Sequence record: MH051911
Length of the DNA: 50,354 nucleotides
Source: Enterobacteria phage vB_EcoS_IME18
Reading direction: 5' to 3' (one strand)
A program made the position numbers and the translations under genes. This document shows, in pieces, positions 1 to 50,354 of the stretch (position 1 is the stretch's first letter; every line of letters starts with the position of its first letter). Under the pieces are notes generated by a model. It had not been told where the DNA came from and did not search any database. It was given only the letters and a program-made list of their open reading frames with translations.

Positions 1-151
1 CTTTTACACCATCAACTATGCCGACAACCTGAACCGCCGCGCCGAACTCAATGTCACCTTGAGCCACACAAGCGCCATCAATATTGTAGGTTGAAGTATC
101 AGAAAGATTTCCCGGACACGCCGGGCGCAACATTAAATTTTCGTAAGCCAT
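1..151 (-). CDS. gpD-like head decoration protein with C-terminal Ig-like domain, 5' portion; continues at 49738..50354 across the window junction
   Basis: ATG at 149-151 with SD GGAGAAA; frame open to position 1; N-terminus paralogous to 213..689 product; joins in frame with ORF at window end. Confidence 0.55.
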   Translation of the reverse strand, partial: MAYENLMLRPACPGNLSDTSTYNIDGACVAQGDIEFGAAVQVVGIVDGVK

Positions 152-164
152 AATGATTTCTCCA

Positions 165-196
165 TAAAAAAAGGACTATCCAAAAAAGGATAGTCC
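165..196 (-). terminator. intrinsic terminator, hairpin GGACTATCC/GGATAGTCC plus U-run on minus strand
   Basis: 9-bp inverted repeat 173-181/188-196, A8 run 165-172 (U-run on minus transcript); sits between 213..689 gene and next RBS. Confidence 0.6.
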
Positions 197-212
197 CCAT
201 ATTAAACGCTAA

Positions 213-689
213 TTACAGTTGATGCAACTGAACCTCAACAAGCTGAATATCTTTGTATTTAGTCCAGCCGCCAGCGTAGGTCCAGGTTGTTTCGATCGTG
301 CCATCAGATTTCTCTTGACCATCAACATCAAGTTTAACGGCAGAGCCGAAAGTTGGTGCTTCGGTGGATTTGGAAAGCATCCATACTCGGCCTGAAGTCA
401 TCACGTTGATAGCGCCGCCATCTTCGTAAATCATCTGATTTTGAGCGTTAACAGTCTGCCAGTGAGATCGGATTGCCACGCCGTAAGGAGTGGTTCCGGT
501 AGTAAGAGCCTTAACCAACTTATGACCATCAACCGCCTGAGCTTGAACAACTTGTACGGCAGCGCCAACAAGAACATCACCTTCATTAACGACACAAGCG
601 CCGTCAATATTGTACTTTGAAGTATCCGCAACCATACCCGGAAGCGCAATCGCCATATCTCGCTGATAAGATGCATTAATTTGTGCCAT
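213..689 (-). CDS. putative head decoration protein (lambda gpD-like position), paralog of junction gene
   Basis: ORF with SD AAGGAGAAA; located between scaffold and major capsid genes as gpD is in lambda; shares TPYG...SGRVW motifs with junction ORF. Confidence 0.55.
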   Translation of the reverse strand: MAQINASYQRDMAIALPGMVADTSKYNIDGACVVNEGDVLVGAAVQVVQAQAVDGHKLVKALTTGTTPYGVAIRSHWQTVNAQNQMIYEDGGAINVMTSGRVWMLSKSTEAPTFGSAVKLDVDGQEKSDGTIETTWTYAGGWTKYKDIQLVEVQLHQL

Positions 690-700
690 GATATTTCTCC

Positions 701-1813
701 TTACATTACTTTGCTTAAACGTGAATTTGGCGTAACAGGAGCGGCGTCGTTTTTCTCTTCCGGCTTGCCACCTTCGATAGAGTCGCCTTTTACTGCTTTA
801 CGCTGAATAGCCATGATATCAGAATCTTTAGCAACATCAAACATAGCGTCGATATATGCGTCTGATTTTTCGCTAACATCTTTATCAAGCATGGCTTTAA
901 CTACGGCAATCTTGACGTCTTTGATATCAAGACCATCATGTTTGACACCTGCGGTTTCTGCTACTGCGGTAACTTCTGCGCGTGCGGCGGCATCAGCTTT
1001 TTGCTTCTCTACTTCAGCCTTCACAAGTTCCGGCAGAGAGTCAACCTTAACCTTCAGCGCGTCGCGTTCAGCTTCGAAGCCATCAGCCTTGCCCTGAATG
1101 GTGGCAATCTGTGCGGTTAATTTTTCGATGTGGTTCGCAACGTCTTCGGTTACTTCCACATCAACGGAGTCGATCTTGATTTTTTTCATTTGCTTGTCCT
1201 CGTTAGTTGATTGAACGTTATTATAATACGGAAATTCCTGTTCAGCATCAAGGTTTAATTTAGCAATTCCAGCACGACCCTTGAAAACTAGTGCGATATG
1301 GTTGACCTTGATATTAGTCTGTACCGCGTCAAATTTCACCCAGCCTTCCGGCGGCGCTTCGTCCTGTTTCATATCCTCTTCGAAGATATATTCTCCAGTC
1401 TCATTTGAACCCCAGCCGGGCTTATCAATATCTACCGACGTATACCCTACAGATAATTCCCCGGCCTCCTTCGCTTTAGCCTTGCTGATCGCGTAGTCGC
1501 TGTAAATACTCAAAGGAACTTCAACGCCAACCCCTGAAGCAATACCAGCGCCAGCACACGATCCGACAACAACGTCCTTAGCATTTTGGGGAGTCACCGT
1601 TACGTGACCGACTGTGATCGGCTTGCCTGCAAAACTTTGCAAGGATTCTTGCTTGAAAACTTCGGACGCCGGACGGAACTCAACTCTATCGCCGTGCGGC
1701 GTTTTGTAAACCTGAGCGCCGATTCGCGCCACGATTGGGCGGTCAACTAAAAAACCGTTATCATCAAAGTGCGCCTTGATTTTTACTGAATCGAATCTTT
1801 GCTTTGCCTTCAT
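701..1813 (-). CDS. putative prohead protease/scaffolding protein
   Basis: Start reassigned to ATG 1811-1813 with SD AGGAG; C-terminal coiled-coil-like Ala/Glu/Lys-rich region; position between head morphogenesis and decoration genes. Confidence 0.55.
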   Translation of the reverse strand: MKAKQRFDSVKIKAHFDDNGFLVDRPIVARIGAQVYKTPHGDRVEFRPASEVFKQESLQSFAGKPITVGHVTVTPQNAKDVVVGSCAGAGIASGVGVEVPLSIYSDYAISKAKAKEAGELSVGYTSVDIDKPGWGSNETGEYIFEEDMKQDEAPPEGWVKFDAVQTNIKVNHIALVFKGRAGIAKLNLDAEQEFPYYNNVQSTNEDKQMKKIKIDSVDVEVTEDVANHIEKLTAQIATIQGKADGFEAERDALKVKVDSLPELVKAEVEKQKADAAARAEVTAVAETAGVKHDGLDIKDVKIAVVKAMLDKDVSEKSDAYIDAMFDVAKDSDIMAIQRKAVKGDSIEGGKPEEKNDAAPVTPNSRLSKVM

Positions 1814-1815
1814 TT

Positions 1816-2577
1816 TTAATCTCCTGTAGAAAAGTCTGGAACAGCCCAACAGCGGCAATTGTATTCCTCACCCGGGAATACATGATCGGAATCTACCGCT
1901 ATGCGCTTACCTTCCCATCTTACATGTTTTTCACGTTCGCGTAAATCCATCACCCCGCGCCAGAAATAGTAAGATACACCAGCGTCTTTTATGCGCTGCC
2001 GCATCAGTCTACTGTTCCATGTTCCGACAATTCCCGACGCCCTGTTTTTGGCCCAGCTTCGGTAAATACCAAATCGCTCCTTAGCCAGTTCAACAACAAA
2101 ATCCTTGCTTTTACCCTGACCGGATGCCGCACGAAGTTTATCAGTGAAATCAGTAACCATGTTGGCGGCAAATTTCCTGATAGAAGTAGTCACCTGCGAT
2201 CGCCACAGATTATATTGTCCTGAGTACCAGCTTTCGGCGGCGGTAGGACCAATCAGGGCAAGTAGCATAACGGCTTGATTCTTCTTACCTCCAGCATTGC
2301 GAGCGATACGCAGCCACTGCTTAGAGTTGAATTTATAGATCGTGAGCGCAACGGATGATAGAGAACCAATAATCGGAGCGATGAGTGATTCAACGTAATC
2401 AAGCAATGACCTTTCTGTCTGATCTATCTCTTCGTCAGTGGCGTCAAATTTCATCGGCTTTAATTCGTCACGCATTTTTTCAGTTAGTTTGGCTGCAACA
2501 TCCTGTAGGGAGCGCGACATTGCGCGCTCGCTCATTTCAGGATAGCGCCACTGTGTTGCAACGCCATTAATTTTCAT
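1816..2577 (-). CDS. head morphogenesis protein (SPP1 gp7 / Mu F-like minor head protein)
   Basis: 253-aa ORF directly after portal gene; sequence pattern typical of Mu F family (recalled, not searched). Confidence 0.65.
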   Translation of the reverse strand: MKINGVATQWRYPEMSERAMSRSLQDVAAKLTEKMRDELKPMKFDATDEEIDQTERSLLDYVESLIAPIIGSLSSVALTIYKFNSKQWLRIARNAGGKKNQAVMLLALIGPTAAESWYSGQYNLWRSQVTTSIRKFAANMVTDFTDKLRAASGQGKSKDFVVELAKERFGIYRSWAKNRASGIVGTWNSRLMRQRIKDAGVSYYFWRGVMDLREREKHVRWEGKRIAVDSDHVFPGEEYNCRCWAVPDFSTGD

Positions 2578-3850
2578 CTTCTAACTTCTCCCCTAATCCC
2601 GGTTCCGGTTCGGTTGTTTCTTCCGGTTCGCGAATGTTGATGTTATTACCATCCTTGAGTTTGAACTCAGGGGCAATGGATCGCAGCGTGTCGCGAGCTT
2701 CTTCCAGATCGATGATTTGCTCAGTGATAGCCTTCGTGACTGACTCAACGTTATTCTTCGTGATCTCTGATTCCTCTTTCTTACTCGGAACAGACAAAGG
2801 CTCAAACTCGATCGACCACTCTTCCTCATCAACAATGAACGGCAACAAGAACTCAAGAAGCGGCCTGTAGTCTTCCTCACGCTTGCGGTCGACTAGCTTA
2901 TAGAAAGTCTCAAGCGCTGTGTTTTGACTCGCTGATACGCCGCCTACGTTCTTATTCTTAATGATAATCTCATGAATCCCGGATAGTGAGACGATGCGGT
3001 CCATCTTGCTTGATAAGAACTCAGGAACTCCGCTGATATCAGAGTTGAGAACGTCATATTCCTCAGTCTCAGCATCGATACCGATCGCACGACCTACGCC
3101 GGAGTTATCATCAACCTGAGCAAGTCGCAGGCGCGCGGCATACTGAGCATCATCATCATCACACATTTCGGCAAGACCTTTGACCTTCCATACAGCCTGT
3201 TGCTTACGTCGCAAGATCTGAGTAGCAAGAGATTCACAGTAATCATAATCACAGATTGCATCAATCAGTGACTTGTTCAATACCGAAGCTCCCCATCCTT
3301 GATTCTGCTTTCTTGCCTGTTGCGTTACTCGTTCACCATCAGCAATAAAGACTCTTGAGTGATGAATCAGATACGGCTGCATATTGTCGCCAGGGGATAC
3401 CTTGTAAATTTCAGGCTCACCATAGCGAGGGGATCTTGCATTGGTGACTCGCTTTTCAATAGTGATAGCAAATCGATCGTAAACTCGGACGCCTTCAAGT
3501 TTGGCTCCAGGCTTTGCCTGACTGGTTAACATCCGGTTGTCGTTGATGATTGCCACCATCGCCGCGCCACCGTAAAGTCTCGCCCAACAAAGAAGATCCA
3601 CCAGACTTGAATCAAGTTTGTAGCTATCCCATAAAGACTTGAACTCTTTTTCATCCTTAACGCCTGACATTTTAAAACCAGCCGTCACCATCTCTTCCGG
3701 GATAACATCCACAATTCGCTTCGCGGTTGCGTTGTCGTTGTAGAAAGAACCTACGTGATATGATGCATCAGACATAAAGAATGGCTTAGGCGACCCGTCC
3801 GCGCCGCCGTTAAAGATATCGTTATATCCATCATGCTTAACAATTTTCAT
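2567..3850 (-). CDS. portal protein
   Basis: Start reassigned to ATG 3848-3850 with SD GGAGG; about 427 aa; immediately downstream of large terminase. Confidence 0.7.
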   Translation of the reverse strand: MKIVKHDGYNDIFNGGADGSPKPFFMSDASYHVGSFYNDNATAKRIVDVIPEEMVTAGFKMSGVKDEKEFKSLWDSYKLDSSLVDLLCWARLYGGAAMVAIINDNRMLTSQAKPGAKLEGVRVYDRFAITIEKRVTNARSPRYGEPEIYKVSPGDNMQPYLIHHSRVFIADGERVTQQARKQNQGWGASVLNKSLIDAICDYDYCESLATQILRRKQQAVWKVKGLAEMCDDDDAQYAARLRLAQVDDNSGVGRAIGIDAETEEYDVLNSDISGVPEFLSSKMDRIVSLSGIHEIIIKNKNVGGVSASQNTALETFYKLVDRKREEDYRPLLEFLLPFIVDEEEWSIEFEPLSVPSKKEESEITKNNVESVTKAITEQIIDLEEARDTLRSIAPEFKLKDGNNINIREPEETTEPEPGLGEKLEDEN

Positions 3851-3860
3851 GTTTCCTCCA

Positions 3861-3887
3861 ATAAAAAGGGCCGTCAATTGACAGCCC
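3861..3887 (-). terminator. intrinsic terminator/attenuator between terminase and portal genes
   Basis: Near-palindrome GGGCCGTCAATTGACAGCCC preceded on plus by A-run (U-run on minus transcript), followed directly by portal RBS. Confidence 0.5.
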
Positions 3888-3904
3888 TGATTATATCTCA
3901 TTTA

Positions 3905-5473: not shown

Positions 5474-5511
5474 ATCAATTCTCCTATGTTGGCGCTCGCG
5501 CGCCCGTAACG

Positions 5512-6036
5512 TTAAAGCATGTCAAGAATGCTATTTACTGCGTCCTTCATTGCATCCTCAGTAGTGGCTACTACTGTCGATGCGGAAGCTGACGAGTTTT
5601 CGATATTGATTGAGGCTGGCTTGTCGATTCCGAGATCCTTACCGATAAATGAGGCGTTAATAACACCGTTGGCGGCAAGCTGGAATTTTTGCTCGTTGAT
5701 TACCGATTCCACAAACTCCATAACCTCACTGTATTCTTCCTCTCGCTTCCACTTAATGATTGCGGCCTCGCTTGCACCGATGAATAGTCGGTATCCGGTC
5801 CAGGTGAAGACGCGCGGCTTATGGACAAGCGATTCATAAACGCCACCCTGAAAGCTGGCTGATTCTGACGCCTTGATTGCATTGTCCTCGGCCCATTCGA
5901 AATACTTCACTGACAGATCGAATAGTTGCTCTGGCGTCATCGCCCGGTTTTTCGCGAGTACAGTGCCAAACTTTTTCTTGTATAGCTCTTTGAAATTACC
6001 CCCCTGGACTACGGGAGCGTTCTTAGGTTCACTCAT
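5512..6036 (-). CDS. putative terminase small subunit
   Basis: Start reassigned to ATG 6034-6036 with SD GAGGA; position immediately upstream of large terminase. Confidence 0.5.
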   Translation of the reverse strand: MSEPKNAPVVQGGNFKELYKKKFGTVLAKNRAMTPEQLFDLSVKYFEWAEDNAIKASESASFQGGVYESLVHKPRVFTWTGYRLFIGASEAAIIKWKREEEYSEVMEFVESVINEQKFQLAANGVINASFIGKDLGIDKPASINIENSSASASTVVATTEDAMKDAVNSILDML

Positions 6037-6088
6037 AAATCCATCCTCTTTGTTTAACATTTAGTGCTATTTTACCATATTGCAGGCA

Positions 6089-6112
6089 TAAAAAAACCCG
6101 CCGAAGCGGGTT
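6089..6112 (-). terminator. intrinsic terminator separating early island from packaging operon
   Basis: Stem CCCGC/GCGGG with CGAA loop, A8 run on plus (U-run on minus transcript). Confidence 0.65.
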
Positions 6113-6120
6113 AGTGTTTA

Positions 6121-6348: not shown

Positions 6349-6349
6349 G

Positions 6350-7825: not shown

Positions 7826-7885
7826 TTCGATTTTCTCTCTTCGTTGTCGATGAGGTAACTATATCAAATCACCCCATCGACGTTT

Positions 7886-8470: not shown

Positions 8471-8578
8471 GTTAGTATCTCCCTAAAAATAATTTTGCCA
8501 CATTGATGATAGTGTGATTGATGATTAACAGGATGATAACCGTCAATACCGGATGTGCTGCAATAAATTCGTACAGGT

Positions 8579-9190
8579 TCACTTCAATAACTCCTTGCAC
8601 TTAATACATATTTTATCGCCAAATGGCGGTAGCGGCTCAGATGGTTCATGATTGCAAACCTCATCTACGCCATGAGATTTTAAATGATCGTGAATTTTAT
8701 CGCCATAGTCAACTACGGCATACGTTGTTATTCCAAGCGAGCGGAATAATGGAATAATCTGCGGTGAGTCATCCCAAGCTGCCAGGATGTTCTCAATACC
8801 GATCGCGCGCACCGCCTCTTCTTTCATTACCGTGTCTTTGCGGTTGTCGGTGTGCGGCCTCATGACCAAGTAATCATATCGAGCGCCGTGATGCTTAAGC
8901 CATAACTCAGATGCGTAACGCACCTCATCACTTCGCCCGGTTAAAATTATTACATGATATCCAGCGGCAAACATAGAGTTCATCACATCGATCGTGCTTT
9001 GGATAGGGTTGTCAAATATTGCCGAGCGGTTAAACTCGGACCAGCTTTCAGTTAAGTGCAAATCCTTTGTCGGTAGCAGGTGAAGTCGACCAGATCCATC
9101 GCTAAGTGTTCCATCAAAGTCAAAGATTGCTACGCGGCGCGTGCCGAGAAACAGATTGATTGCCTGGCCCCAAATTGTGATTTTATCCAT
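8579..9190 (-). CDS. HAD-family phosphatase resembling polynucleotide kinase 3'-phosphatase domain
   Basis: DxDGT motif FDFDGTL, ILTGRS, DNRKDTVMKEEA resembling T4 Pnk phosphatase segments (from memory). Confidence 0.65.
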   Translation of the reverse strand: MDKITIWGQAINLFLGTRRVAIFDFDGTLSDGSGRLHLLPTKDLHLTESWSEFNRSAIFDNPIQSTIDVMNSMFAAGYHVIILTGRSDEVRYASELWLKHHGARYDYLVMRPHTDNRKDTVMKEEAVRAIGIENILAAWDDSPQIIPLFRSLGITTYAVVDYGDKIHDHLKSHGVDEVCNHEPSEPLPPFGDKICIKCKELLK

Positions 9191-10144: not shown

Positions 10145-10783
10145 TTACATGATGAACATCAGCGAAATCGAAGCTACCAGGAGAACAAGCGCAACAGCCA
10201 GGCCGGATAAATCCGCTTTCTCTTCAAACTTCAATGCTGGCTTGCGGTCAACTTGTGACGCCTTGACGCTGTGGATCTTGTTTGCTGCAACCTTGCCTTT
10301 AACGCAGAAAGTGCGCTTACGCTTCTTGCCGAACGTTGCAAACTTAGTGCCGCCGCTATTCCATCTCAGACCTTCGCCATTGTGCGTTACGGTAGCAATG
10401 CGGTGACGCCCCGTGTCGTCAGTAAGCGCTACAGTGTGTTTTGCGTTCTCGGTCGGCGCTTCGTAAATATTGCCAACAGTAAATTTTTTGGTGTTATCGC
10501 TGATACATTCGAATTTCATAAATTTTACCTCTTTATTATGCAGTTGGTTGATTGCTTCGATTACGTCGTTAAATTTAACACCATCCACGATTCGATGGAA
10601 GATGTATTTTGAACTATTGCCATACGGCAGGAATATCTCCTGGTATTCGTGACGACGGACAATGTTCACGTTGCAACCGTTCTCATCAGTAATGATGAAG
10701 CTGTCATCATTTACGCGAACACCTTTGTAAGTTTTTCCCCACTTAAAACCAGATCCGCTACTTGATACGCACTCAAATTTCAT
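10145..10783 (-). CDS. membrane-anchored protein with tandemly duplicated domain
   Basis: Two internal repeats each starting MKFEC(V/I)S...; C-terminal hydrophobic segment LSGLAVALVLLVASISLMFIM. Confidence 0.5.
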   Translation of the reverse strand: MKFECVSSSGSGFKWGKTYKGVRVNDDSFIITDENGCNVNIVRRHEYQEIFLPYGNSSKYIFHRIVDGVKFNDVIEAINQLHNKEVKFMKFECISDNTKKFTVGNIYEAPTENAKHTVALTDDTGRHRIATVTHNGEGLRWNSGGTKFATFGKKRKRTFCVKGKVAANKIHSVKASQVDRKPALKFEEKADLSGLAVALVLLVASISLMFIM

Positions 10784-11067
10784 GGTCTAACCTTCCTGTA
10801 AGGCTTGATTGATAACATCACGTATTGCGTGAAGTCGCATCCTTGATCGTCATACCCGCGATTGATGTATGGCGTCACGTCTGTAACATCGGACACCCTG
10901 GCGTGAACTTCCCACCCGGTAAACTCGTCACGTTCGAACTCGCGTAGCTCAAGGATATCACCAACCTGGAAGTTTCGGTCATTGACGCGGAACTCTGCCG
11001 TTTTGGTTCCGTTCATTACACCAATGAAATGTACCGGGGCGATTTTTAACTTATGAGTTTTGCTCAT
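10780..11067 (-). CDS. hypothetical protein (possible ASCH/DUF3850-like fold)
   Basis: 95-aa ORF, SD GAGGTAAAG; family assignment is tentative recollection. Confidence 0.45.
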   Translation of the reverse strand: MSKTHKLKIAPVHFIGVMNGTKTAEFRVNDRNFQVGDILELREFERDEFTGWEVHARVSDVTDVTPYINRGYDDQGCDFTQYVMLSIKPYRKVRP

Positions 11068-11257
11068 CTTTCTTTACCTCAAATGTCACGTTCCAGAATT
11101 TATTGCCGCATGAATGATAGATTACGTCCTGAGATGTTAGTTCGTGCAATGCGTGCCCGATAATCTCCATTCGGTCATTCGGCGCCAGTCCACGAAGTGA
11201 TTCGCGTAGGCGTGATGCCTTGTCGTAAATCTGCCACTGCGTGAGTCGTGTATCCAT
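11051..11257 (-). CDS. hypothetical protein
   Basis: Start reassigned to ATG 11255-11257 with SD AGAGGA in conserved CCAATCAGAGGA context. Confidence 0.45.
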   Translation of the reverse strand: MDTRLTQWQIYDKASRLRESLRGLAPNDRMEIIGHALHELTSQDVIYHSCGNKFWNVTFEVKKDEQNS

Positions 11258-11325
11258 AGCTGATTCCTCTGATTGGTTGCTCTGCTTCAATAAGGCCACT
11301 ATATCAAATGGCCTTGCGGAAGGTT

Positions 11326-13681: not shown

Positions 13682-14149
13682 TTTGGTGAGATATTTCACA
13701 CGGCTTCCGGCAGTCTCATTCCAGCCATCCTCAAAGAATACGCTATAGCAAGTTGTCGAACGCTGGCGAACCTTCGACACAGTGCGCCACACTTTACGGC
13801 CCGAGTAACCAGTCAGCACACGCATCCCTGGCAACAACTCACCAGACTTTCTCACCTTAATGGCAACATCAGCATCAAGCTCGAACGACTCAAGATAGAC
13901 CGGGTTAATCATATTGCACATGCGGCGCTCTTCGTGCTCATCTGCCCACTCGCAGCCATTGTTCGTCTTGATAGCTCCAATGAAGCAACCCAGTTTTTCA
14001 GTAAGTGAGCCTGCGCGGTATGAGTTGATATCGATGACCGTGTAATGGCTATACATATGCCAGTGCAATCCGGTTTTGTGCTCAAACGCGAAGAATGACA
14101 TTTCGCCATCAACCTCATCTTTAGCCAGAAATACGGTAATTGTCGTCAT
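13679..14149 (-). CDS. hypothetical protein
   Basis: 156-aa ORF; stop TAG inside box. Confidence 0.55.
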   Translation of the reverse strand: MTTITVFLAKDEVDGEMSFFAFEHKTGLHWHMYSHYTVIDINSYRAGSLTEKLGCFIGAIKTNNGCEWADEHEERRMCNMINPVYLESFELDADVAIKVRKSGELLPGMRVLTGYSGRKVWRTVSKVRQRSTTCYSVFFEDGWNETAGSRVKYLTK

Positions 14150-14151
14150 GA

Positions 14152-14346
14152 TTAAGCCTCGGAAAAATAAGTGTTAAATCCTTTGAGTTTGTAGTCGCTG
14201 CCGACGCGCACCACGTTCCAGGTAAGACCAGAGTGATACGCAACCATATCCTCAAGGTCGATCGTGATTTCGGTTCCCTTCTTGAACAGACCCTTTTCAT
14301 GAGTTGAGTCTCGCTGAACAACCACTACGTCAATTTGCGTTTCCAT
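14152..14346 (-). CDS. hypothetical protein
   Basis: Start reassigned to ATG 14344-14346 with SD AGAGGA. Confidence 0.45.
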   Translation of the reverse strand: METQIDVVVVQRDSTHEKGLFKKGTEITIDLEDMVAYHSGLTWNVVRVGSDYKLKGFNTYFSEA

Positions 14347-14406
14347 CTTTGTTTCCTCTGTATCGTGTCGATGAAAAGATAATACCCGATCCGCTCGACC
14401 GGGATT

Positions 14407-14421
14407 TAACAAAAAGTGCTA
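14407..14421 (-). promoter_or_regulatory. palindromic box (promoter-associated)
   Basis: TAACAAAAAGTGCTA; TATTAT 22 nt downstream on minus strand. Confidence 0.55.
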
Positions 14422-14679
14422 TTTCATCAAAGTGAAGCAGCGAATTTTATTTGGCTTGAATAGGAATAGCTGGATGCCTTGCACCTTACCAAGACTTATC
14501 ATCTCTACGCCAAACTGTTTACGCACATACCGAACCAGCTCATCAGCTGGCGAACTCATCTGTAGGCCGAGTCTATAGAAGCCGACGAACCCGAATGTCT
14601 CGGGGTTAAGCTGGAATGCTTCGCCTGGATTTAGTTGCATCAATACACCTTTCAGGGCGTCATGATTAATCTTGCTCAT
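14419..14679 (-). CDS. hypothetical protein
   Basis: Start chosen at ATG 14677-14679 with SD AAGGAG spacer 8. Confidence 0.45.
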   Translation of the reverse strand: MSKINHDALKGVLMQLNPGEAFQLNPETFGFVGFYRLGLQMSSPADELVRYVRKQFGVEMISLGKVQGIQLFLFKPNKIRCFTLMK

Positions 14680-14691
14680 AACCATCTCTCC

Positions 14692-15207
14692 TTACAATCC
14701 ACATTTCTCAATATGCGCTTTCATCTGGCGCACGATCTCATTTACATCACGAACCATTAACTCGCTATCGCCCAGCTTGCTAACATCAACGTCAAACGAA
14801 TCGAGGCAATCAGTCAGGCTAACTTTCTTCCGGCTGCGGCGCTTCTTCACCGGAACCTCTTCGTCTGTAACGATAACGGTTATCATCGTGATTGCCGCGT
14901 CATTCCGGCCTACCTTCACCTTTGCCACCTTGCCATACTTACAGAAGTGCCTGGTAATGATCGGAGTGATGAAAGCGGACTTGAATCGCTTCTCTACCTC
15001 CCCCTGGTTCTGGTCCACCCATCCGGCAGCGGCAGATTCAAGATCGCTATCGCTTACCTCCTGGTCACGGAAGTAGAATCGCGCGGCTTCGAGGGCCATA
15101 TCATCAGCCACGAAAGAGAACTCATTCATGCCTTTGTCGCGATACATTGCATCGCAGGTTAGTCGAATCATATCGGTGATTTTTAATTCCTGATTGGTGT
15201 TGCTCAT
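14692..15207 (-). CDS. hypothetical protein
   Basis: 171-aa ORF, SD AGAGGG; first gene of minus-strand early block. Confidence 0.55.
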   Translation of the reverse strand: MSNTNQELKITDMIRLTCDAMYRDKGMNEFSFVADDMALEAARFYFRDQEVSDSDLESAAAGWVDQNQGEVEKRFKSAFITPIITRHFCKYGKVAKVKVGRNDAAITMITVIVTDEEVPVKKRRSRKKVSLTDCLDSFDVDVSKLGDSELMVRDVNEIVRQMKAHIEKCGL

Positions 15208-15611
15208 AATATACCCTCTTTGTCTATTCGTGTGTAAATGGTGTCATAATGTGTCAACAATTGCCATTGTGACATTGCGATGTAGAGCTGTCAATGCCTG
15301 CGAGCCAATTTTAAGCCGTGTAACATTTGTCTAGCTGTCTAGAGTCACTATAGAAATATATAGCTCTCAAAAAAGTACTGTATATATAAACATGCAGATA
15401 GAAATATGCCAACAGTACGCCAGACAATGTAAGACAACTATACACAACTATTACAATATAATTATCTATATATATAAATAAAAAAAACACTATATATATT
15501 ATATAGATACATATATCTATATGTATATTTAGAGGCGTCACAGTGTGTAATTTTGTCACAAGTGCGATTCTAGACAAATATTACATCCGTGACAAGTTAA
15601 AGTGTAATCGA

Positions 15612-15626
15612 TAGCACTTTTTGCTA
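15612..15626 (+). promoter_or_regulatory. palindromic box TAGCA-N5-TGCTA
   Basis: TAGCACTTTTTGCTA inside control region; no good -10 at +22. Confidence 0.4.
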
Positions 15627-15816
15627 AAAATGGAGATGACTACCAGGCGAACTGGGCAACACCAGATCATCCCTCTCACAATCATTGCAATCTCAGCAAC
15701 AAATCAACCAACTGTTGCACACCATGCAATAATCACGTTTCATCATTTGCAATCAATCGCAATCAGAATTATTCCACCTATTCCGATATTGATGGAATAA
15801 TGAGCAATTATTGGAA

Positions 15817-15831
15817 TAGCATTTTTTGCTA
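15817..15831 (+). promoter_or_regulatory. palindromic box (promoter-associated)
   Basis: TAGCATTTTTTGCTA with TATGGT-like hexamer about 22-23 nt downstream; upstream of 15895 gene. Confidence 0.45.
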
Positions 15832-15894
15832 ATGACTCGATCAGGTTGTCGGGGTATGGTTCTGGCCATCAACCAATCAGAAGAGGAAGCAGCA

Positions 15895-16512
15895 ATGAAG
15901 TTAATTTGGTCACTATTCGACGGTTCCGGTCTTGCGGGTCATGAACTGGCAAAGCAAGGTCACAAGGTGATGTGCTTCAACTTTGACGGAGCAGATCACG
16001 GAGATTACGCAAAGTACAATGCCCGGGTTGAGCATCCGAACATTGAGTATGTGAACGTGTTCATTGATGCAACGTTTGAGCGTGATGCGATCGCGGGTGT
16101 GTATGGCAAGCCGGATTTTATTATGGCCTTCCCTCCTTGCACTGACCTGGCTGTTAGTGGTGCTCGTCACTTTGCAAGCAAGCGTGAGCGCGATCCGTTA
16201 TTCCAGGAGAAAGCTGTTGCCACCGCTAGGATTGCTGCGAATATTGGCGACGCCCTGGGAGTGACTTACATCATTGAGAATCCGGTGAGCGTCCTGTCAT
16301 CTGCCTGGAGAAAACCAGATCACTCCTTCAATCCCTGGGAGTATGGCGGCTACCTTCCTGAGAATGACGCACATCCCTGGTTCCCGATGTATATTGCGCC
16401 GCGCGATGCTTACCCGAAGAAAACTTGTCTTTGGACCTCTGACGATTTTGTCATGCCAGAGAAAAAACCTGTAACCTGCCTGACGGGTACTCTGCACAGC
16501 ACAGCAAGCTAG
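15895..16512 (+). CDS. short C5-cytosine methyltransferase-like protein
   Basis: Start reassigned to ATG 15895 (SD AGAGGAAG); motif I-like LFDGSGLAG, PC motif FPPCTD, ENV-like IIENPVSV; only about 205 aa, no obvious target-recognition domain. Confidence 0.5.
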   Translation: MKLIWSLFDGSGLAGHELAKQGHKVMCFNFDGADHGDYAKYNARVEHPNIEYVNVFIDATFERDAIAGVYGKPDFIMAFPPCTDLAVSGARHFASKRERDPLFQEKAVATARIAANIGDALGVTYIIENPVSVLSSAWRKPDHSFNPWEYGGYLPENDAHPWFPMYIAPRDAYPKKTCLWTSDDFVMPEKKPVTCLTGTLHSTAS

Positions 16513-16582
16513 GCGGCAAGTCCGCCAAAACAAAACTGATACGATCCCTGTCGCCGCGTGGATTTTTCAAAGCGATCGCAAA

Positions 16583-16597
16583 TAGCACTTTTTGTTA
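16583..16597 (+). promoter_or_regulatory. palindromic box (promoter-associated)
   Basis: TAGCACTTTTTGTTA; CATAAT 22 nt downstream. Confidence 0.6.
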
Positions 16598-16658
16598 AAA
16601 CTCGATCTGTGCGATTTGGCATAATTACCTCATCGAAACGAGATTGAGGAAAAACAAA

Positions 16659-16844
16659 ATGGCACGTCGCATCACTAAAGACCTTAAAATTCTGAACAAA
16701 GAAAACGTAGTTAAAATCCTGGCTATTTGGGGATACAGCGAAGAGTCAGCAAAGCAGAAGGTAGAGGCTGGTTATGACCTGGCTGTCAAGGCGATGCCTA
16801 ACGACGACGCAAAAGGCATTGCAAACTATGTAGCATTCTTTTAA
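16659..16844 (+). CDS. hypothetical protein
   Basis: Start reassigned to ATG 16659 with SD GAGGA. Confidence 0.45.
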   Translation: MARRITKDLKILNKENVVKILAIWGYSEESAKQKVEAGYDLAVKAMPNDDAKGIANYVAFF

Positions 16845-16859
16845 TTAACTGGCTAACAA

Positions 16860-17045
16860 ATGAAAACGAAATTAGTGCATAAATCAGAAATCAAGATCGG
16901 CGATACTGTTATTCACAACGGAGAGCTTAGAACAGTTGGTAAGGAGTCGATAACCAAAGATGAATTTATGGGGTTATTGTTGTTCGGCGACTCCTATCGC
17001 CTGGGGTACAAATTTGTCGAGCTTGTTGAAGATGTAAAATTCTAA
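16860..17045 (+). CDS. hypothetical protein
   Basis: 61-aa ORF; stop followed directly by box. Confidence 0.4.
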   Translation: MKTKLVHKSEIKIGDTVIHNGELRTVGKESITKDEFMGLLLFGDSYRLGYKFVELVEDVKF

Positions 17046-17046
17046 A

Positions 17047-17060
17047 TAGCACTTTTGTTA
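17047..17060 (+). promoter_or_regulatory. palindromic box (promoter-associated)
   Basis: TAGCACTTTTGTTA (N4 spacer); TATAGT 22 nt downstream. Confidence 0.6.
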
Positions 17061-17119
17061 AGCGCGCACACGGGGTGGCTGGTATAGTCATCACATCAAC
17101 AGCAAACGAGGAAAGAATC

Positions 17120-30205: not shown

Positions 30206-32230
30206 ATGGCTTTATATAGACGCGGTACAGCATCAATGGATGCAGACGGAACGGTTCACGGAACCGACACAAAATGGAAAGACCAACTTGCTCTGATTCG
30301 AGTCGGTGCAACTATCGTATTCCTGGAGCAACCGATCAAGCTGGCGGTAATCAGCGACATCGTGAGCGACACAGAGTTAAAGGCTATCTCTACGGATGGT
30401 CAGACTGCCGCTGACGGAAAGTATGTGATCCTGCTTAACGACTCATTGACCGTTAACGGGCTTGCGCAAAACGTCGCTGAGACGCTTCGATACTATCAAA
30501 GCAAAGAGACTGAGATTGCTGGAGCATTGGATATTATTGCCGATCTTGATATGGATAACCTTAACCGCATCGTTGAAGAAATTAAGGCGAACAAATCAGC
30601 CGCTGAATCTGCACAGAATCAAGCGGAACTTGCTCGCGACTCAGCGAATGCAGCACGCGACGAAGCTAACGCCACTAAAGGTCAGGTACAGCAAATTGTT
30701 GACGGGGCGGTCGGTAGCATCAATTCAGCAAAAGACCAGGCTGTAACAGCTGTTAACTCCACGAAAGATTCAGCAGTAACCACAATCAATCAGGAAGAAG
30801 CTAGCGCGATCTCTGCTATCAACGCGGCGAAGGGAGATTTATCAGGTTACGTTAATGACGCTCAAGCGGCTGCTTCTACTGCAACATCTGCTAAAAACGA
30901 CGCTCAGAATGCAAGAAATCAAGCAGTAAGCGCAAAAGATGCAGCGGCGGCGTCTGCTCAGGAAGCTAAGGATGCAGCAAGTAGTGTTAATGCCTCAAAC
31001 CTGTTAACAAAAGATGGAAATCTTTCTGGATTAACAAATACACAAGCAGCAAGGAATAACTTGCAGGTTTTATATGCATCAAATTCTAATTTGGGATCTA
31101 CCGATCTTAACACGCTTAACAGCACTAAGGAGGGTAGGTACTATCAAACAACATCGGCTAATGCTACATCAGAGCGTAACTACCCATTTCAGGAGGCTGG
31201 TTGTCTTACAGTATTTAAAACGGGCGCTGGAAGCGTAGAGGCGTGTATACAGGAGTACACCACGTTTTCAAGCATGCGTAGATTCGTTAGATCTCTTGCT
31301 GGGACGGTATGGAAGGAGTGGAAGGAGATCTACCTGCAAGGGTCATTCCCGACTTACGGCGATATTAACGCTAAAGGCCGCGTGAGATCTGAGAAGGAGT
31401 ACCCTTCGTTCGAGTGGGTAACGACGAAAGTCGGAGACGATTTCATTGGCAAACGAGTCAGCATAGAGAATGACTCTGGTGTTAATATGTTCATGTTCTT
31501 CATGCAGAAAGAGACAACAGCAAATAGACGTGTCGTATCGTTCGCAAGACCTAACTCTACCGTATTCCACTTCGTCGGCTACAACGGTGGACTGCCTACA
31601 GATGGCAACAGTGCGCCATCAAATAACATAAACTTTAACACTCAGCCACAAGGCTGGAGGTTGGTATCAGGTGGGTGGCAAAATGCTCCTCTTGCTGGTA
31701 ATAGCTACGGGACTTTATTCACGCAGTGTATGCAAGGTGTTGCGCAGGGTGATTCGAAAAACACGGGTGATTCAGGATTATGGTATTCGCAGCGATATAC
31801 TAACACCGAATCACGCATGTTTATCAGAAATCAAACTAACAACGCAAACTGGTCCAACTGGTTCGAGTTCACTAAAACAGCGGTATCAGACGAACGCCTG
31901 AAGAATGTAAAAGGTAATTTGAATGTTGAAGGTGCGCTTGATAACATCAATCGCATGGAGTTTAAAGTATTCTCATTTAAGGACGATAAAAAAGGGAAGG
32001 GATATAGACGCGGTGTTATCTCTCAGCAGATTCGACAGATTGACAAAGAGTATACAAAGGAGATAGGCGGTTACTATCATCTAGATCAAACACCTATGCT
32101 TCTTGATGGATTGGCGGCAATAAAGGCACTTCGCGCTCGTGACGAAGAGAGCAAAAAAAGAATTTCAGATCTTGAATCAAGAATTTCCTCACTTGAGGAT
32201 ATGATCAAAAAACTAATAGAAAACAAGTAA
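30206..32230 (+). CDS. tail fibre protein with C-terminal intramolecular chaperone domain
   Basis: 674 aa; N-terminal coiled/Ala-rich region; C-terminal SDERLKNVKG motif typical of autoproteolytic chaperone domains; SD TAAGGAG. Confidence 0.65.
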   Translation: MALYRRGTASMDADGTVHGTDTKWKDQLALIRVGATIVFLEQPIKLAVISDIVSDTELKAISTDGQTAADGKYVILLNDSLTVNGLAQNVAETLRYYQSKETEIAGALDIIADLDMDNLNRIVEEIKANKSAAESAQNQAELARDSANAARDEANATKGQVQQIVDGAVGSINSAKDQAVTAVNSTKDSAVTTINQEEASAISAINAAKGDLSGYVNDAQAAASTATSAKNDAQNARNQAVSAKDAAAASAQEAKDAASSVNASNLLTKDGNLSGLTNTQAARNNLQVLYASNSNLGSTDLNTLNSTKEGRYYQTTSANATSERNYPFQEAGCLTVFKTGAGSVEACIQEYTTFSSMRRFVRSLAGTVWKEWKEIYLQGSFPTYGDINAKGRVRSEKEYPSFEWVTTKVGDDFIGKRVSIENDSGVNMFMFFMQKETTANRRVVSFARPNSTVFHFVGYNGGLPTDGNSAPSNNINFNTQPQGWRLVSGGWQNAPLAGNSYGTLFTQCMQGVAQGDSKNTGDSGLWYSQRYTNTESRMFIRNQTNNANWSNWFEFTKTAVSDERLKNVKGNLNVEGALDNINRMEFKVFSFKDDKKGKGYRRGVISQQIRQIDKEYTKEIGGYYHLDQTPMLLDGLAAIKALRARDEESKKRISDLESRISSLEDMIKKLIENK

Positions 32231-45242: not shown

Positions 45243-45258
45243 ATAACCCCCTTATATA

Positions 45259-45281
45259 CAAAAAAACCGCCAAACGGCGGC
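45259..45281 (-). terminator. hairpin plus U-run between chaperone and tape measure genes
   Basis: Stem CCGCC/GGCGG with A-run on plus (U-run on minus transcript). Confidence 0.45.
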
Positions 45282-45916: not shown

Positions 45917-45938
45917 GATATTTCTCCTGATTGGTTAA

Positions 45939-45953
45939 TAGCACTTTTTGTTA
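45939..45953 (+). promoter_or_regulatory. palindromic box adjacent to chaperone G RBS
   Basis: TAGCACTTTTTGTTA about 20 bp upstream of G start on opposite strand; TACGAT 22 nt downstream on plus. Confidence 0.4.
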
Positions 45954-45989
45954 AAAGCAAAGAGTGCAAAGTTGATACGATGATTTTAC

Positions 45990-46017
45990 AGAAATGAAGA
46001 AGGGGGCGCAAGCCCCC
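45990..46017 (-). terminator. intrinsic terminator after major tail gene
   Basis: Stem GGGGGC/GCCCCC, loop GCAA, U-rich tract on minus transcript. Confidence 0.6.
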
Positions 46018-46029
46018 TGTGGATATGAT

Positions 46030-46698
46030 TTAGGCACCTGGAGATGCCAGAGTTGATGAGACGAAAGTAAAGTCACCTTTCAGGGATACGGCGAGTTCCA
46101 CCGTTTCCATTTCGTTAACCTGCGTGGATGGGATATCGTTAAACGACAAGATGCCAGCCCACATACGCATTTCGCTCGCTTTCGGCACGTACATTCGAAC
46201 CGCTGTTACCTGGCCAGACGAATCCAGCTTGCGCAGAATCGGGTAGATCGGGTTATCAAATTCGTGCGCGAAAGTGTACGTTAGCGATACCGCAGATTTA
46301 AACGTTGGGATCTGCTGCTCTTTATCGTCGGACAAACACTGATAAGTGTAATACTGCTGCTCGCCGCCGTCCTGACCAATCTCCTGTACGCAAGGAATCT
46401 CAGTCCAGCCAGTAATTTTTGCAAAGCTCATTGTACCGCCAGTCGGGAAAACAAGAGTATCAGAGGTGTCAATTCCAGCAAGAGTGATGCTTGTTTCTTG
46501 AGCGTCAGTAACAATTAGCACTCGACTAACCATCTTAGCCCAAGTTGACTGAGTTACAATAACGTAATCGCCTTTTACTAAGTCACCTTTAGATGCAACT
46601 GTAGCAACAGGATTATCTGCATTAGTGATAGCGGTCGCCTCAATCTCTACTCCGCGAGAGGTTTCCACGAAAATTTGCGCGCCATTTGGTAAGTGCAT
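46030..46698 (-). CDS. major tail protein (lambda gpV-like)
   Basis: 222 aa; position upstream of chaperone pair; followed by strong terminator. Confidence 0.65.
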   Translation of the reverse strand: MHLPNGAQIFVETSRGVEIEATAITNADNPVATVASKGDLVKGDYVIVTQSTWAKMVSRVLIVTDAQETSITLAGIDTSDTLVFPTGGTMSFAKITGWTEIPCVQEIGQDGGEQQYYTYQCLSDDKEQQIPTFKSAVSLTYTFAHEFDNPIYPILRKLDSSGQVTAVRMYVPKASEMRMWAGILSFNDIPSTQVNEMETVELAVSLKGDFTFVSSTLASPGA

Positions 46699-46699
46699 A

Positions 46700-47098
46700 T
46701 TAAGTCTCCTTTGTGTCTACTCGTACTGTAAAGCGAACCGGAATCATCCACCCGCTTTCATGTTTAACAATTTGATGCACGATTGCACCCTCGAAAATAT
46801 AACCAACGTTAAGCATTTTACCATCTTTGAAAAAATCAGCAATCTCTTTTGCTTTCAATCTTGCCTCGTCAACGCCGGAACCTGGAGGGAACACTACGCC
46901 GATCTGAACGATTGCGATGTAAGATTTACACTTTCTGTCAATGGATAGATAAAGCGTATCCCCTTCAATGTAGTTGAACCTCAGCCACATCCCGCCATCC
47001 TTCGGCGGTGTGAAATTTCTGTTTTCCATGTAGTGAGGAAAGTCTCTGTACTTTGATAGAAAAGCGGCTCGCGCCGCCGCTGATAACTCATAGTGCAT
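46700..47098 (-). CDS. putative tail terminator (gpU-like position)
   Basis: 132 aa, immediately upstream of major tail gene. Confidence 0.4.
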   Translation of the reverse strand: MHYELSAAARAAFLSKYRDFPHYMENRNFTPPKDGGMWLRFNYIEGDTLYLSIDRKCKSYIAIVQIGVVFPPGSGVDEARLKAKEIADFFKDGKMLNVGYIFEGAIVHQIVKHESGWMIPVRFTVRVDTKET

Positions 47099-47624
47099 TT
47101 TGCTGTCTCCTTGCCTGCTTGATTGCGTCAGCCATATATGATCTAAGCCTTAACGCCACAAGACCGACAACGCCGCTCGGTGCTTGCTGTGAATGACCGT
47201 ACTCAAGAGCGTTTGCATAAATCAACATGTTTGAAAAGTGAACTGATGTTATCGCGCCGCCACGGCTGAACATGCCATAAGTTTTGGCCTGCTCCTCACC
47301 TCTGACGACACCGCCAGTTTTATCGTATCGGTTTAATGCGTGGTTAGGTATTTCGTTAAAAGTTATCTGCCAGTTACCCTTGAATCGACCTGTATCAACA
47401 GGGGAGCGGCTAACAAGAGCGTCGTGAACATCCCTTACGAATATCTCAATGGCATGTTCTAACGTGCTTTCAGCTGCCTTAATCCACGCATCAATCTCGC
47501 CTTGAAATCTACGAATCTGATAATTAGCCACCGACTGATACCCTCCGTAATACTGGACGATAGGCGACTGGTTCCAGTGACGCCTGAACCGGGCGAGCAT
47601 CAACGACAACATGACGAATGCCAT
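47088..47624 (-). CDS. putative tail completion protein (HK97 gp10 / gpZ-like)
   Basis: Segment ANALEYGHS resembles gp10-family motif; start uncertain (ATG candidates 47600-47624). Confidence 0.4.
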   Translation of the reverse strand: MAFVMLSLMLARFRRHWNQSPIVQYYGGYQSVANYQIRRFQGEIDAWIKAAESTLEHAIEIFVRDVHDALVSRSPVDTGRFKGNWQITFNEIPNHALNRYDKTGGVVRGEEQAKTYGMFSRGGAITSVHFSNMLIYANALEYGHSQQAPSGVVGLVALRLRSYMADAIKQARRQQNAL

Positions 47625-47904
47625 CAATCTCTATATAGTCACCTTCGTTTATTTCATGATCATTATTGAAGATCCCCAAAATATCTGAGGCGCGGATAGT
47701 TTCCCCGTCAATCTCACGCGCGTTCGGTCTTCTCGTCGCGCCGGATATTGGAATAACCTGTTCCATCGGTGGGATCTCGAATCCGTTTTCATCATATCCG
47801 TATTCAACTTGTTTTATCAGGTTCATAGGTCTTGACGGATCGGTGAAGAAAGCCACGCCTTTGCGAGCCATTCTTTCAATCTGTGAGTAGTTCATTAGTG
47901 GCAT
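47524..47904 (-). CDS. putative head-tail joining protein
   Basis: 126-aa ORF in connector gene block. Confidence 0.4.
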   Translation of the reverse strand: MPLMNYSQIERMARKGVAFFTDPSRPMNLIKQVEYGYDENGFEIPPMEQVIPISGATRRPNAREIDGETIRASDILGIFNNDHEINEGDYIEIDGIRHVVVDARPVQASLEPVAYRPVLRRVSVGG

Positions 47905-48305
47905 CCTCCACGGAGTCCTGTCATTAATGCGAATCTACCACGGCGTCTCGCTTTAAGCTGTTCGAACATCTTACCCCACGGCGTCGAAAGCATCATGTTC
48001 CCTGACTGGTTCTTCGTAACCTCTCCGAAAGTCTGGCTAAATTCACCGCTCAGGGAGAATGACGTAACGCGTCGTGAGTACGATTCCAGATCCTCATCTT
48101 CACCTTTTAGCGCCCCGTCAAGGAAAGCAAGGTGCAATGCATAAAGAGCGAGCGCTTTGACGTATGCGTCTTTAAAGGTCTTCTGGCATACAAAAAGCTC
48201 AGCCATTTCTACCCACGCATAAAGCGTTTCGTCTGGAACCTTACGAAGTGCCGGAACCAGCTTTCGCATTTGCTCAACAACTGCAATTAAAGTTTCTTGA
48301 TTCAT
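47895..48305 (-). CDS. putative head-tail connector/adaptor protein
   Basis: 136-aa ORF; LALYALHLAF-type segment reminiscent of gp6-like connectors. Confidence 0.4.
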   Translation of the reverse strand: MNQETLIAVVEQMRKLVPALRKVPDETLYAWVEMAELFVCQKTFKDAYVKALALYALHLAFLDGALKGEDEDLESYSRRVTSFSLSGEFSQTFGEVTKNQSGNMMLSTPWGKMFEQLKARRRGRFALMTGLRGGCH

Positions 48306-48349
48306 AATTTACCCCCATAAAAAAAGGCGCTACATGAGCGCCTTGATGA

Positions 48350-48637
48350 TTAATATTCGCCGCCGTCCTCAAGCTCTTTAACGCTTTTGCTATCCCACGG
48401 ATCTGGCTTCGTGATCTTTGCCATTTCAGCGCGGATTTTGCGGTTGGTTGCACTGTCGTCTTTAACTTCGATTTCTTCGCGAGCAATTAAGCAACGCAGG
48501 CCGGGCAAATCAAGAACGGACGCCGGAAGCGTGACCTCTTCATCTGGAAGAACTTTAGCAAAGGAGCCATCTTCAAGACGGAACATCTGAAGAGCTACAC
48601 CAACATTTACGATAACAACAGTTTTTTCTTTAGCCAT
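48350..48637 (-). CDS. hypothetical head-associated protein
   Basis: 95-aa ORF with SD GGAGAAA directly after capsid-gene terminator. Confidence 0.45.
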   Translation of the reverse strand: MAKEKTVVIVNVGVALQMFRLEDGSFAKVLPDEEVTLPASVLDLPGLRCLIAREEIEVKDDSATNRKIRAEMAKITKPDPWDSKSVKELEDGGEY

Positions 48638-48650
48638 TTTGATTTCTCCA

Positions 48651-48679
48651 ATAAAAAAGGGACTAACTAAGTTAGCCCC
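48651..48679 (-). terminator. intrinsic terminator after major capsid gene
   Basis: Stem GGGACTAACT/AGTTAGCCCC with A7 on plus (U-run on minus transcript), immediately followed by next RBS. Confidence 0.6.
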
Positions 48680-48686
48680 TATAATA

Positions 48687-49646
48687 TTACACGCCAGTGA
48701 TTAAGACAATAGTCATCGGGCGATAAATTGTAAGACCAGTACATTTAGAGGTGCAAGGCACTTTAAAGTGCAAGTCTTTCGGCTGTGCTGGCAGCATGTT
48801 AAATGCTTCCGGGATCTCGATGGACATATTCATCGGATTCTTTTCGTACACCAGCACACCTTTAGTTCCAGCGCCGTCGATATCTTCAAGTTCTGCGATA
48901 GAGTCGATTTCGATACCTGAGTTCTGAGACTTGAAATAGTCCAGATAAGACATGGTAGTCTCAGGCATACGAATCGCCAGCACCTTACGCATGGACGGCG
49001 GGATCAGAATGTTGGTAGCTCGGTGCTGGCCTCGAGTAATCGTCTCGATGGTTTCGATCGCCTGAGTCAATTCCGCTTCAGCCGTTTCCGGTTTCTGAGT
49101 TGCGCCATCCATCCACTTACCGGAGGTAATTTTGGTGATGTTCGGATGATTGAACACGGACACAATCTTGTGCGGCGCGGAACCTTTGAACACCAGGCGG
49201 TTAACAAGCTGATCATGAGCCAACTGGCACGCACTTGCCTTACGGGTTGACAGTGGGCGACCAGTTGCCTGACCTGCTTTGATTTCGTCGATTGAGATCA
49301 GATACGCGTTACCCAGACGGAACACCTTGCCAAACTCAGAAGTACCCAGGGCGTCAACCAGCGGAAGATCGTCGGTGTAGTCTGCGATAATCTGAGCCGT
49401 ACCAACCTTGTCAAAGGTCATGTATTCAAACGTCTTATCAGTCGGAGAAAGATCGGTTGTAACCGGGAATACGCGTAAAGCTGAGCCGACCGGGTAGTCT
49501 TCTTCATAGGACTGGCTTTTGATGCGGTGTAGTTCCTGAGCGGTCCAGATACCCATCGTTGCGGCTGCATCCTGTTTTACGCCAGCCTGGATCAGATACA
49601 TTTCAACATTGCTTTTATCTGCTTCATCAAATTTTTTAGTAGTCAT
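48687..49646 (-). CDS. major capsid protein (lambda gpE-like position)
   Basis: 319 aa; SD GGAGAAG; flanked by terminator hairpins on both sides. Confidence 0.7.
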   Translation of the reverse strand: MTTKKFDEADKSNVEMYLIQAGVKQDAAATMGIWTAQELHRIKSQSYEEDYPVGSALRVFPVTTDLSPTDKTFEYMTFDKVGTAQIIADYTDDLPLVDALGTSEFGKVFRLGNAYLISIDEIKAGQATGRPLSTRKASACQLAHDQLVNRLVFKGSAPHKIVSVFNHPNITKITSGKWMDGATQKPETAEAELTQAIETIETITRGQHRATNILIPPSMRKVLAIRMPETTMSYLDYFKSQNSGIEIDSIAELEDIDGAGTKGVLVYEKNPMNMSIEIPEAFNMLPAQPKDLHFKVPCTSKCTGLTIYRPMTIVLITGV

Positions 49647-49664
49647 GATTACTTCTCCGTAGTT

Positions 49665-49695
49665 AATAAAAAAGCCGTGATTATGTTCACGGCTT
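49665..49695 (-). terminator. intrinsic terminator between junction gene and capsid gene
   Basis: Stem AAGCCGTGA/TCACGGCTT, loop TTATGT, A-run on plus (U-run on minus transcript). Confidence 0.6.
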
Positions 49696-49701
49696 CAATA
49701 A

Positions 49702-49716
49702 TAGCACTTTTTGTTA
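49702..49716 (+). promoter_or_regulatory. palindromic box between decoration-like and capsid genes
   Basis: TAGCACTTTTTGTTA; plus orientation inside minus-strand operon; TATGCA-like hexamer 22 nt downstream. Confidence 0.4.
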
Positions 49717-49737
49717 AAGCGTCAAAGTGTTTTTATG

Positions 49738-50354
49738 TTATGCATCAACCTCTGGCGTTGGCACTGCTTCTACGCGATAAGCAATGGTTGCCGTCGTCTT
49801 GCTGGCATCGTTAGCCGTCCAGGTAATATTGAAATCACCGACTACCTCTCCACCAACAGGAGTTACAAGACCCGAGTCCGGATCGACAGTGGCGATATTG
49901 GTAGCGTCGATTGACCATTTGCCAGTCTTATCGGTTGCATTAGCCGGAAGAGCATTAGCTACACACTGGATCGTAACATTGTTTGGCTGAGGACTTTCCT
50001 TGTTAGTGGTGATTGTAGCGGATTCAACAAGAACGACAGGGGGCGGCGGCGGTGGAGCGATGAAAGCATTTTGTTTCACCTGAACTTCAATAATGTGCCC
50101 GTCTTCGTGCTTAACAAAGCCGCCAGCAAAGGTCCATCCTGCGGAACCAGATCCACCAGTAACAACTCCACCAGATCCAAACTGCAACTTTGAGAACAAG
50201 CTGGGAACCTCATCAAGAGAAGTAAGCGCCCATACTCGACCATGAGAAACGACGTTGCAAACTTCACCGTCTAGGATTTTACCGCTCAGGTGTTCATATT
50301 GTGAGCGGAAAGCGATTCCGTAAGGAGTCCCGCCATCAGAAAGTACTTTGACTA
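49738..50354 (-). CDS. gpD-like head decoration protein with C-terminal Ig-like domain, 3' portion (gene begins at 1..151)
   Basis: Frame open from stop at 49738 to window end; poly-Pro linker PPPPPP then Ig-like C-terminal domain; upstream part paralogous to 213..689. Confidence 0.55.
   Translation of the reverse strand, partial: VKVLSDGGTPYGIAFRSQYEHLSGKILDGEVCNVVSHGRVWALTSLDEVPSLFSKLQFGSGGVVTGGSGSAGWTFAGGFVKHEDGHIIEVQVKQNAFIAPPPPPPVVLVESATITTNKESPQPNNVTIQCVANALPANATDKTGKWSIDATNIATVDPDSGLVTPVGGEVVGDFNITWTANDASKTTATIAYRVEAVPTPEVDA

Follow-up and report, generated by a model that had tools for sequence, protein, structure and literature searches.

The capsid decoration gene pair of the T1-like phage vB_EcoS_IME18 and the Ig-domain gene at the origin of its record

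Two decoration genes at the ends of the record

We analysed the whole sequence record MH051911 of Enterobacteria phage vB_EcoS_IME18 (50,354 nucleotides (nt), hereafter the window) around two adjacent genes for capsid decoration, or cement, proteins, one of which is divided between the two ends of the record (Table 1). The short gene codes for 158 amino acids (aa) and the long gene for 255 aa. Both products pass the gathering cut-off (27 bits) of the Pfam family PF22758 Phage_cement, with 106.1 bits for the short and 65.5 bits for the long protein, and both belong to phrog_1989. BLASTP aligned them with 43% identity over residues 11-145 (expect value (E) 4e-30). Upstream of the pair lie the genes for terminase, portal, a Mu-F-like head protein and the DUF2213 protease/scaffold, and downstream lies the major capsid gene. 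The original prediction, made from the sequence letters and their translated open reading frames (ORFs), had described tandem paralogs at the place where phage lambda has gpD, the longer one extended by a poly-proline linker and a C-terminal immunoglobulin (Ig)-like domain. The pair was indeed found between the protease/scaffold and major capsid genes, and the long protein does carry both extensions, its Big_2 domain being recognized both by a hidden Markov model score above the cut-off and by an Ig-like fold in the structural model.

When the end of the window was joined to its start, the two minus-strand parts of the long gene (617 nt at 49738..50354 and 151 nt at 1..151) added up to 768 nt, which is divisible by three, and translated into 255 aa with no internal stop codon, from an ATG at 151..149 to a TAA at 49740..49738. 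The join falls after nucleotide 151 of the gene, within codon 51 (residue 50/51), and the protein reads ...IVDGVK before it and VVKVLSDGGTPYG... after it. This intact frame, with neither stop nor frameshift in the sequence, bears out the earlier claim that the ORF open at the window end runs on into the one starting at position 151, letter for letter; so does the alignment of the joined protein with the 213..689 product, which crosses the join. A query made of the last 1,200 and the first 1,200 nt of the window matched 78 phage records, and in 57 of them at least 80% of its 2,400 nt was covered by one place. The 30 records listed for this query each aligned with it from 1 to 2400 as a single piece, T1 with 97.0% identity. 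LeonhardEuler and ADB-2 covered its full length with no gaps (65 and 75 mismatches, respectively), and only three of these mismatches, at -38, -2 and +16, lay within 40 nt of the join on either side.

Immediately next to the join, T1 differs from the window at 6 of 11 nt, a cluster that gives K53T and V54A. LeonhardEuler and ADB-2 share this variant with the window; the cluster is therefore natural variation and not an end artefact, and we rejected an assembly-end error at the join. A leftover terminal overlap of the assembly was likewise rejected, since the window ends did not overlap exactly at any length from 8 nt upwards (k = 8 to 1,999); the join thus neither repeats nor lacks any sequence. 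The same alignments bear on the idea that the window ends are true physical ends (cos or short direct terminal repeats) inside an ORF-like stretch, the joined ORF being a coincidence. About one third of random joins would be in frame, and this prior is all that favours such a coincidence; a joined gene of the same length as T1 gp48 with a 96% identical product, a sequence uninterrupted in the 30 listed relatives and largely kept in one place in the 57 records, an alignment without gaps over the join and the pac/headful packaging of T1-like phages all contradict it. We consider physical ends at this point extremely improbable and, as far as the sequence goes, refuted.

Table 1. Positions of the decoration genes, their domains, adjacent genes and signals in the window
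Feature	Position	Strand	Basis
Long decoration gene (T1 gp48 / CPTT1_030 ortholog), 5' part: codons 1-50 and first base of codon 51	1..151	-	joined translation
Long decoration gene, 3' part: last two bases of codon 51 to TAA	49738..50354	-	joined translation, Pfam
Long gene, rest of cement domain	to about 50077	-	within 49738..50354
Long gene, PPPPPP linker, residues 151-156	50038..50055	-	long decoration gene
Long gene, Big_2 Ig-like domain (PF02368), residues 175-240	49786..49983	-	Pfam 32.3 bits, cut-off 22.8
Short decoration/cement gene (T1 gp49 / CPTT1_029 ortholog), 158 aa	213..689	-	orthology to T1
Prohead protease/scaffold gene (CPTT1_028), directly upstream; the T1 coding sequence equals 701..1813	701..1858	-	Pfam DUF2213; phrog_530 head maturation protease, E 1e-109
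Major capsid protein gene (T1 gp47 ortholog, CPTT1_031), directly downstream	48687..49646	-	Pfam Major_capside 213 bits; phrog_264
Terminator-like hairpin between short and long genes, 11-bp stem then U-run	171..198	-	scan; RNA fold centroid -17.4 kcal/mol, z -3.85
Ribosome-binding site GGAGA, directly after the 171..198 hairpin; ATG at 151 next	163..159	-	
Promoter-like site TTGACG-16-TATTAT with TG, between long decoration and major capsid genes	49725..49698	-	scan
Terminator-like hairpin before major capsid gene	49696..49671	-	scan; fold z -3.82
Meeting point of the T1 GenBank record ends (T1 positions 2 and 48836)	15729..15731	.	blastn: 15354-15729 = T1 389-2; 15731-15873 = T1 48836-48694

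Orthology to T1, fold and place in the capsid

The short protein is identical to T1 gp49 at all 158 positions, and the long protein matches T1 gp48 at 244 of 255 residues (11 substitutions) and its LeonhardEuler counterpart at 250 of 255. At the nucleotide level, the long gene equals T1 14282..15049 in length and differs from it by 36 nt, besides the 11 aa. The T1 GenBank record annotates the two genes as CPTT1_029, 'capsid decoration protein' (158 aa), and CPTT1_030, 'IgG-domain-containing decoration protein' (255 aa). The order of protease/scaffold gene, short gene, terminator, long gene and major capsid gene is that of T1, so that the T1 pair resembles the window pair in gene order, lengths, intergenic terminator and domain content; the differences from T1 are the substitutions in the long protein and several replaced segments in the early region. 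Both decoration proteins are present in solved structures, namely 9KZJ (T1 capsid) and 9KMG/9KMH (capsid and portal vertex of phage FCWL1). The long protein matched chain 9KZJ_H with E 7e-164 and 9KMH with E 9e-161, and the short protein matched a Protein Data Bank chain with E 3e-103. The FCWL1 decoration protein and its 'decoration protein gp29' (9KMG, 9KMH) show a few substitutions relative to the window proteins; a literature search for a paper on FCWL1 or on these two entries gave unrelated matches and one passing mention.

The T1 head has been described as a T=7 shell of 415 gp47 subunits whose threefold and quasi-threefold axes carry decoration trimers, 80 of them gp49 homotrimers and 60 of them heterotrimers in which one gp48 joins two gp49 (Chen et al., Viruses 2025, PMC11945409). 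Both proteins adopt a beta-tulip fold, which the authors likened to TW1 gp56, lambda gpD and herpesvirus triplex proteins; the N-terminus of gp49 is embedded in the inner capsid surface, and the C-terminus of gp48 (residues 154-255), seen as a weak flexible protrusion and modelled with AlphaFold3, was suggested to aid adsorption (PMC11945409). Capsid location, trimer composition and beta-tulip fold have thus been shown by cryogenic electron microscopy (cryo-EM) for near-identical orthologs, and from this near-identity to the T1 proteins we infer that the vB_EcoS_IME18 capsid probably bears the same homotrimers and 1:2 heterotrimers. Structure prediction of both paralogs and mass spectrometry of virions, put forward as checks together with the original prediction, address questions that cryo-EM had already answered for 96-100% identical proteins.

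The fold of the long form was examined on an AlphaFold2 model of the homolog P0121, which is 94% identical to the window protein. The model has two well-predicted domains with a linker of lower confidence between them (mean predicted local distance difference test (pLDDT) score 89.1; about 92-96 in the C-terminal domain). In Foldseek searches, its N-terminal domain matched 9KZJ_H with a target-normalised template-modelling score of 0.91. For its C-terminal domain, the matches were 7QUZ, a Big_2 structure, and the Ig domain of pb6, which forms the tail tube of T5. The fold comparison scored highest for the FCWL1 decoration protein in 9KMG (22.7) and gp29 in 9KMH (20.4), followed by XM1 (16.0), Pam3 (14.1), E217 gp24 (12.6), TW1 (11.4) and Sf11 gp40 (11.3). 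The fold is common with the solved PF22758 members (E217 gp24, Pam3 gp6). For the cement proteins of PF22758 and PF23982 (E217 gp24, Pam3 gp6, XM1 gp53), as for TW1 gp56 and Sf11 gp40, a single cement gene is described, whereas the window has a second paralog with an Ig domain and its T1 orthologs form heterotrimers.

Lambda gpD came last in the fold comparison, as a weak match (5.3, 6% identity). It resembles the window pair in its gene position, after the scaffold/protease and just upstream of the major capsid gene, in its trimeric capsid-stabilising role and in a beta-tulip element. We nevertheless consider it very unlikely that the two proteins belong to the lambda gpD family proper (PF02924): both fall in PF22758, and neither had a PF02924 match among its Pfam matches at E <= 0.01, so that membership was rejected on sequence. 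The term 'gpD-like' of the original prediction fits the gene position, the role and one remote element of the fold; it does not hold for the sequence family.

The pb6 match raises another possibility, that the long paralog functions in the tail or as an adhesin instead of in the capsid. Residues 157-249 match the tail families phrog_341 and phrog_3575 ('major tail protein'), and the Foldseek matches include the Ig domains of the tail tube proteins of T5 (pb6) and DT57C. These tail matches are, however, confined to the mobile Big_2 domain, the 150 N-terminal residues form a cement domain, and capsid maps contain models of the T1 and FCWL1 orthologs, which leaves a tail protein with hardly any probability.

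Intergenic signals and the Ig-like domain

The T1 record annotates a rho-independent terminator (14237..14269) at the equivalent of the hairpin between the two decoration genes, and a promoter and a terminator at the equivalents of the two sites that precede the major capsid gene. A strong hairpin followed by a U-run lies at every gene boundary of the decoration/capsid block (171..198, 48658..48680 and 49671..49696, all on the minus strand), and the next ribosome-binding site comes directly after each of these terminators, a pattern also present in the T1 annotation. Terminators at these boundaries suggest a graded read-through across the head genes. The 80 gp49 homotrimers and 60 1:2 heterotrimers of T1 amount to 360 gp49 for 60 gp48, roughly 6:1, and a terminator with some read-through ahead of the long gene would agree with this 360:60 ratio. 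More tentatively, and with a probability that we place well below even, the conserved 171..198 hairpin could act as a partial attenuator that sets the approximately 6:1 gp49:gp48 ratio required to place 1:2 heterotrimers at just 60 sites, and the C-terminal load of zero, one or two Big_2 domains that varies among relatives would tune capsid-mediated adhesion to different habitats.

By analogy with T1, the 158-aa protein would form beta-tulip trimers on the threefold and quasi-threefold positions and reinforce the T=7 HK97-fold capsid, and the 255-aa paralog would substitute one subunit in 60 of the 140 trimers, its poly-proline linker keeping a flexible Big_2 Ig-like domain off the capsid surface. 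There, the Ig domain may aid weak adhesion to host or environmental surfaces. T4 Hoc and T5 pb10 are also Ig-like capsid decorations. They resemble the long paralog in carrying an Ig-like domain on a flexible linker from the capsid surface and in their proposed help in adsorption, but they use a different capsid-binding module, whereas here a paralog of the cement protein itself becomes part of the cement trimer. The description of the T1 head (PMC11945409) names T5 and crAss001 as examples of this role of Ig-like capsid decorations.

Genome map, packaging and relatives

The window is collinear with the reverse complement of T1 (AY216660) around the whole circle in blastn, window position 1 corresponding to T1 14432 and position 50354 to T1 14433. 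The two genomes align over 89% of the window and 92% of T1, at 71-95% identity. The ends of the T1 record meet inside the window (Table 1), so that the window and the T1 record are two permutations of one circular map. Members of the genus Tunavirus gave the best nucleotide matches (T1, ADB-2, SH6, LeonhardEuler, SH2 and JMPW1/2, about 91-97% identity); no identical record was found among the phage records compared by nucleotide. With a probability of about 95%, we conclude that the window contains the genome of a T1-like siphophage (Tunavirus, Drexlerviridae) in one complete unit length, that the decoration pair consists of the orthologs of T1 gp49 and gp48, and that the origin of the record cuts the gp48 gene.

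The contiguity of the genome, the orthology, the domain content and the fold come directly from the present analysis, and no contradicting evidence was found. The conclusion is limited in three respects: the physical termini of vB_EcoS_IME18 are deduced from those of relatives, the proposed link between terminator and stoichiometry draws on a sequence pattern, a predicted fold energy and the T1 annotation, and a role of the Ig domain in adhesion has been suggested in the literature. As to the termini, T1-like phages have linear, terminally redundant, partially permuted DNA that is packaged by headfuls from a pac site, and physical pac ends (a submolar pac fragment and heterogeneous termini) are known for T1 and TLS (PMC5238451, PMC11447400). 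The terminase genes of the window agree with this mode: the small subunit (5512..6060, minus strand) matches the P22 gp3 packaging family PF16677, the large subunit is of the headful type (phrog_38 / Terminase_6C), and the region lies within a block of 95.3% nucleotide identity to T1. The map has the form expected of a pac-headful phage, a unit-length sequence whose ends join up and which runs collinear with differently permuted relatives. The record very probably goes back to a circular assembly that was opened at an arbitrary site within a structural gene. The original prediction of a complete circular or circularly permuted genome whose origin cuts a gene thus held for the complete unit length and the cut gene, with the refinement that 'circular' applies to the assembly and to the genetic map, whereas the DNA in the virion is linear, as in related pac-headful phages. 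If the T1 record begins at a pac end, the packaging start of this phage would lie near the meeting point of the T1 ends in the window, about 9.7 kb from the small terminase gene.

Outside the head genes, five segments of the early region had no nucleotide match to T1 (8474..8764, 10532..11272, 13684..14686, 14995..15353 and 15874..17080), and their ORFs were without Pfam match except for a DUF3850 protein (10780..11067, minus strand); they reflect the mosaic exchange that is usual among small early genes. A 674-aa ORF (30206..32230, plus strand) is the counterpart of T1 CPTT1_053 and is labelled lateral tail fibre in other records. Its C-terminal third, especially 31030..32224, lacks a T1 counterpart and bears a Peptidase_S74 intramolecular chaperone domain, and it looks like a swapped receptor-binding tip. 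A tRNA scan of the whole window found none.

The long protein matched 524 phage records in tblastn, 172 of which held at least 80% of the query, that is cement and Ig domains, in one place. Many records matched in two places, corresponding to both paralogs, and other Drexlerviridae had a single cement-domain match only; the gene pair itself recurs in many Drexlerviridae records. Metagenome-wide protein searches recovered three forms of the long-type paralog: proteins of about 255 aa have one Big_2 domain, those of about 337-346 aa have two, and those of about 165 aa have a short acidic tail only. The two-domain form is represented by P0139, P0145, P0150, P0154 and P0157 (337-346 aa), and P0158 and P0159 (about 165 aa) end in a short acidic PEPDP tail without Ig domain. 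The gp48-type paralog is thus modular, with a variable part after a conserved cement domain and proline-rich linker.

Overall, what had been observed from the sequence was confirmed and its interpretation supported, once circularity is read as a property of the map and the likeness to gpD as remote. The decoration pair and its arrangement on the capsid, annotated in the T1 GenBank record and solved by cryo-EM for T1 and FCWL1, are a known system, to which the window therefore adds only another sequence variant. Because the record origin cuts the gene, gene calling on the record in its linear form would overlook the Ig-domain decoration gene or shorten it. The practical consequence is confined to annotation: the record should be rotated, for example to the start of the T1 record or to the small terminase gene, so that the gene is no longer split.

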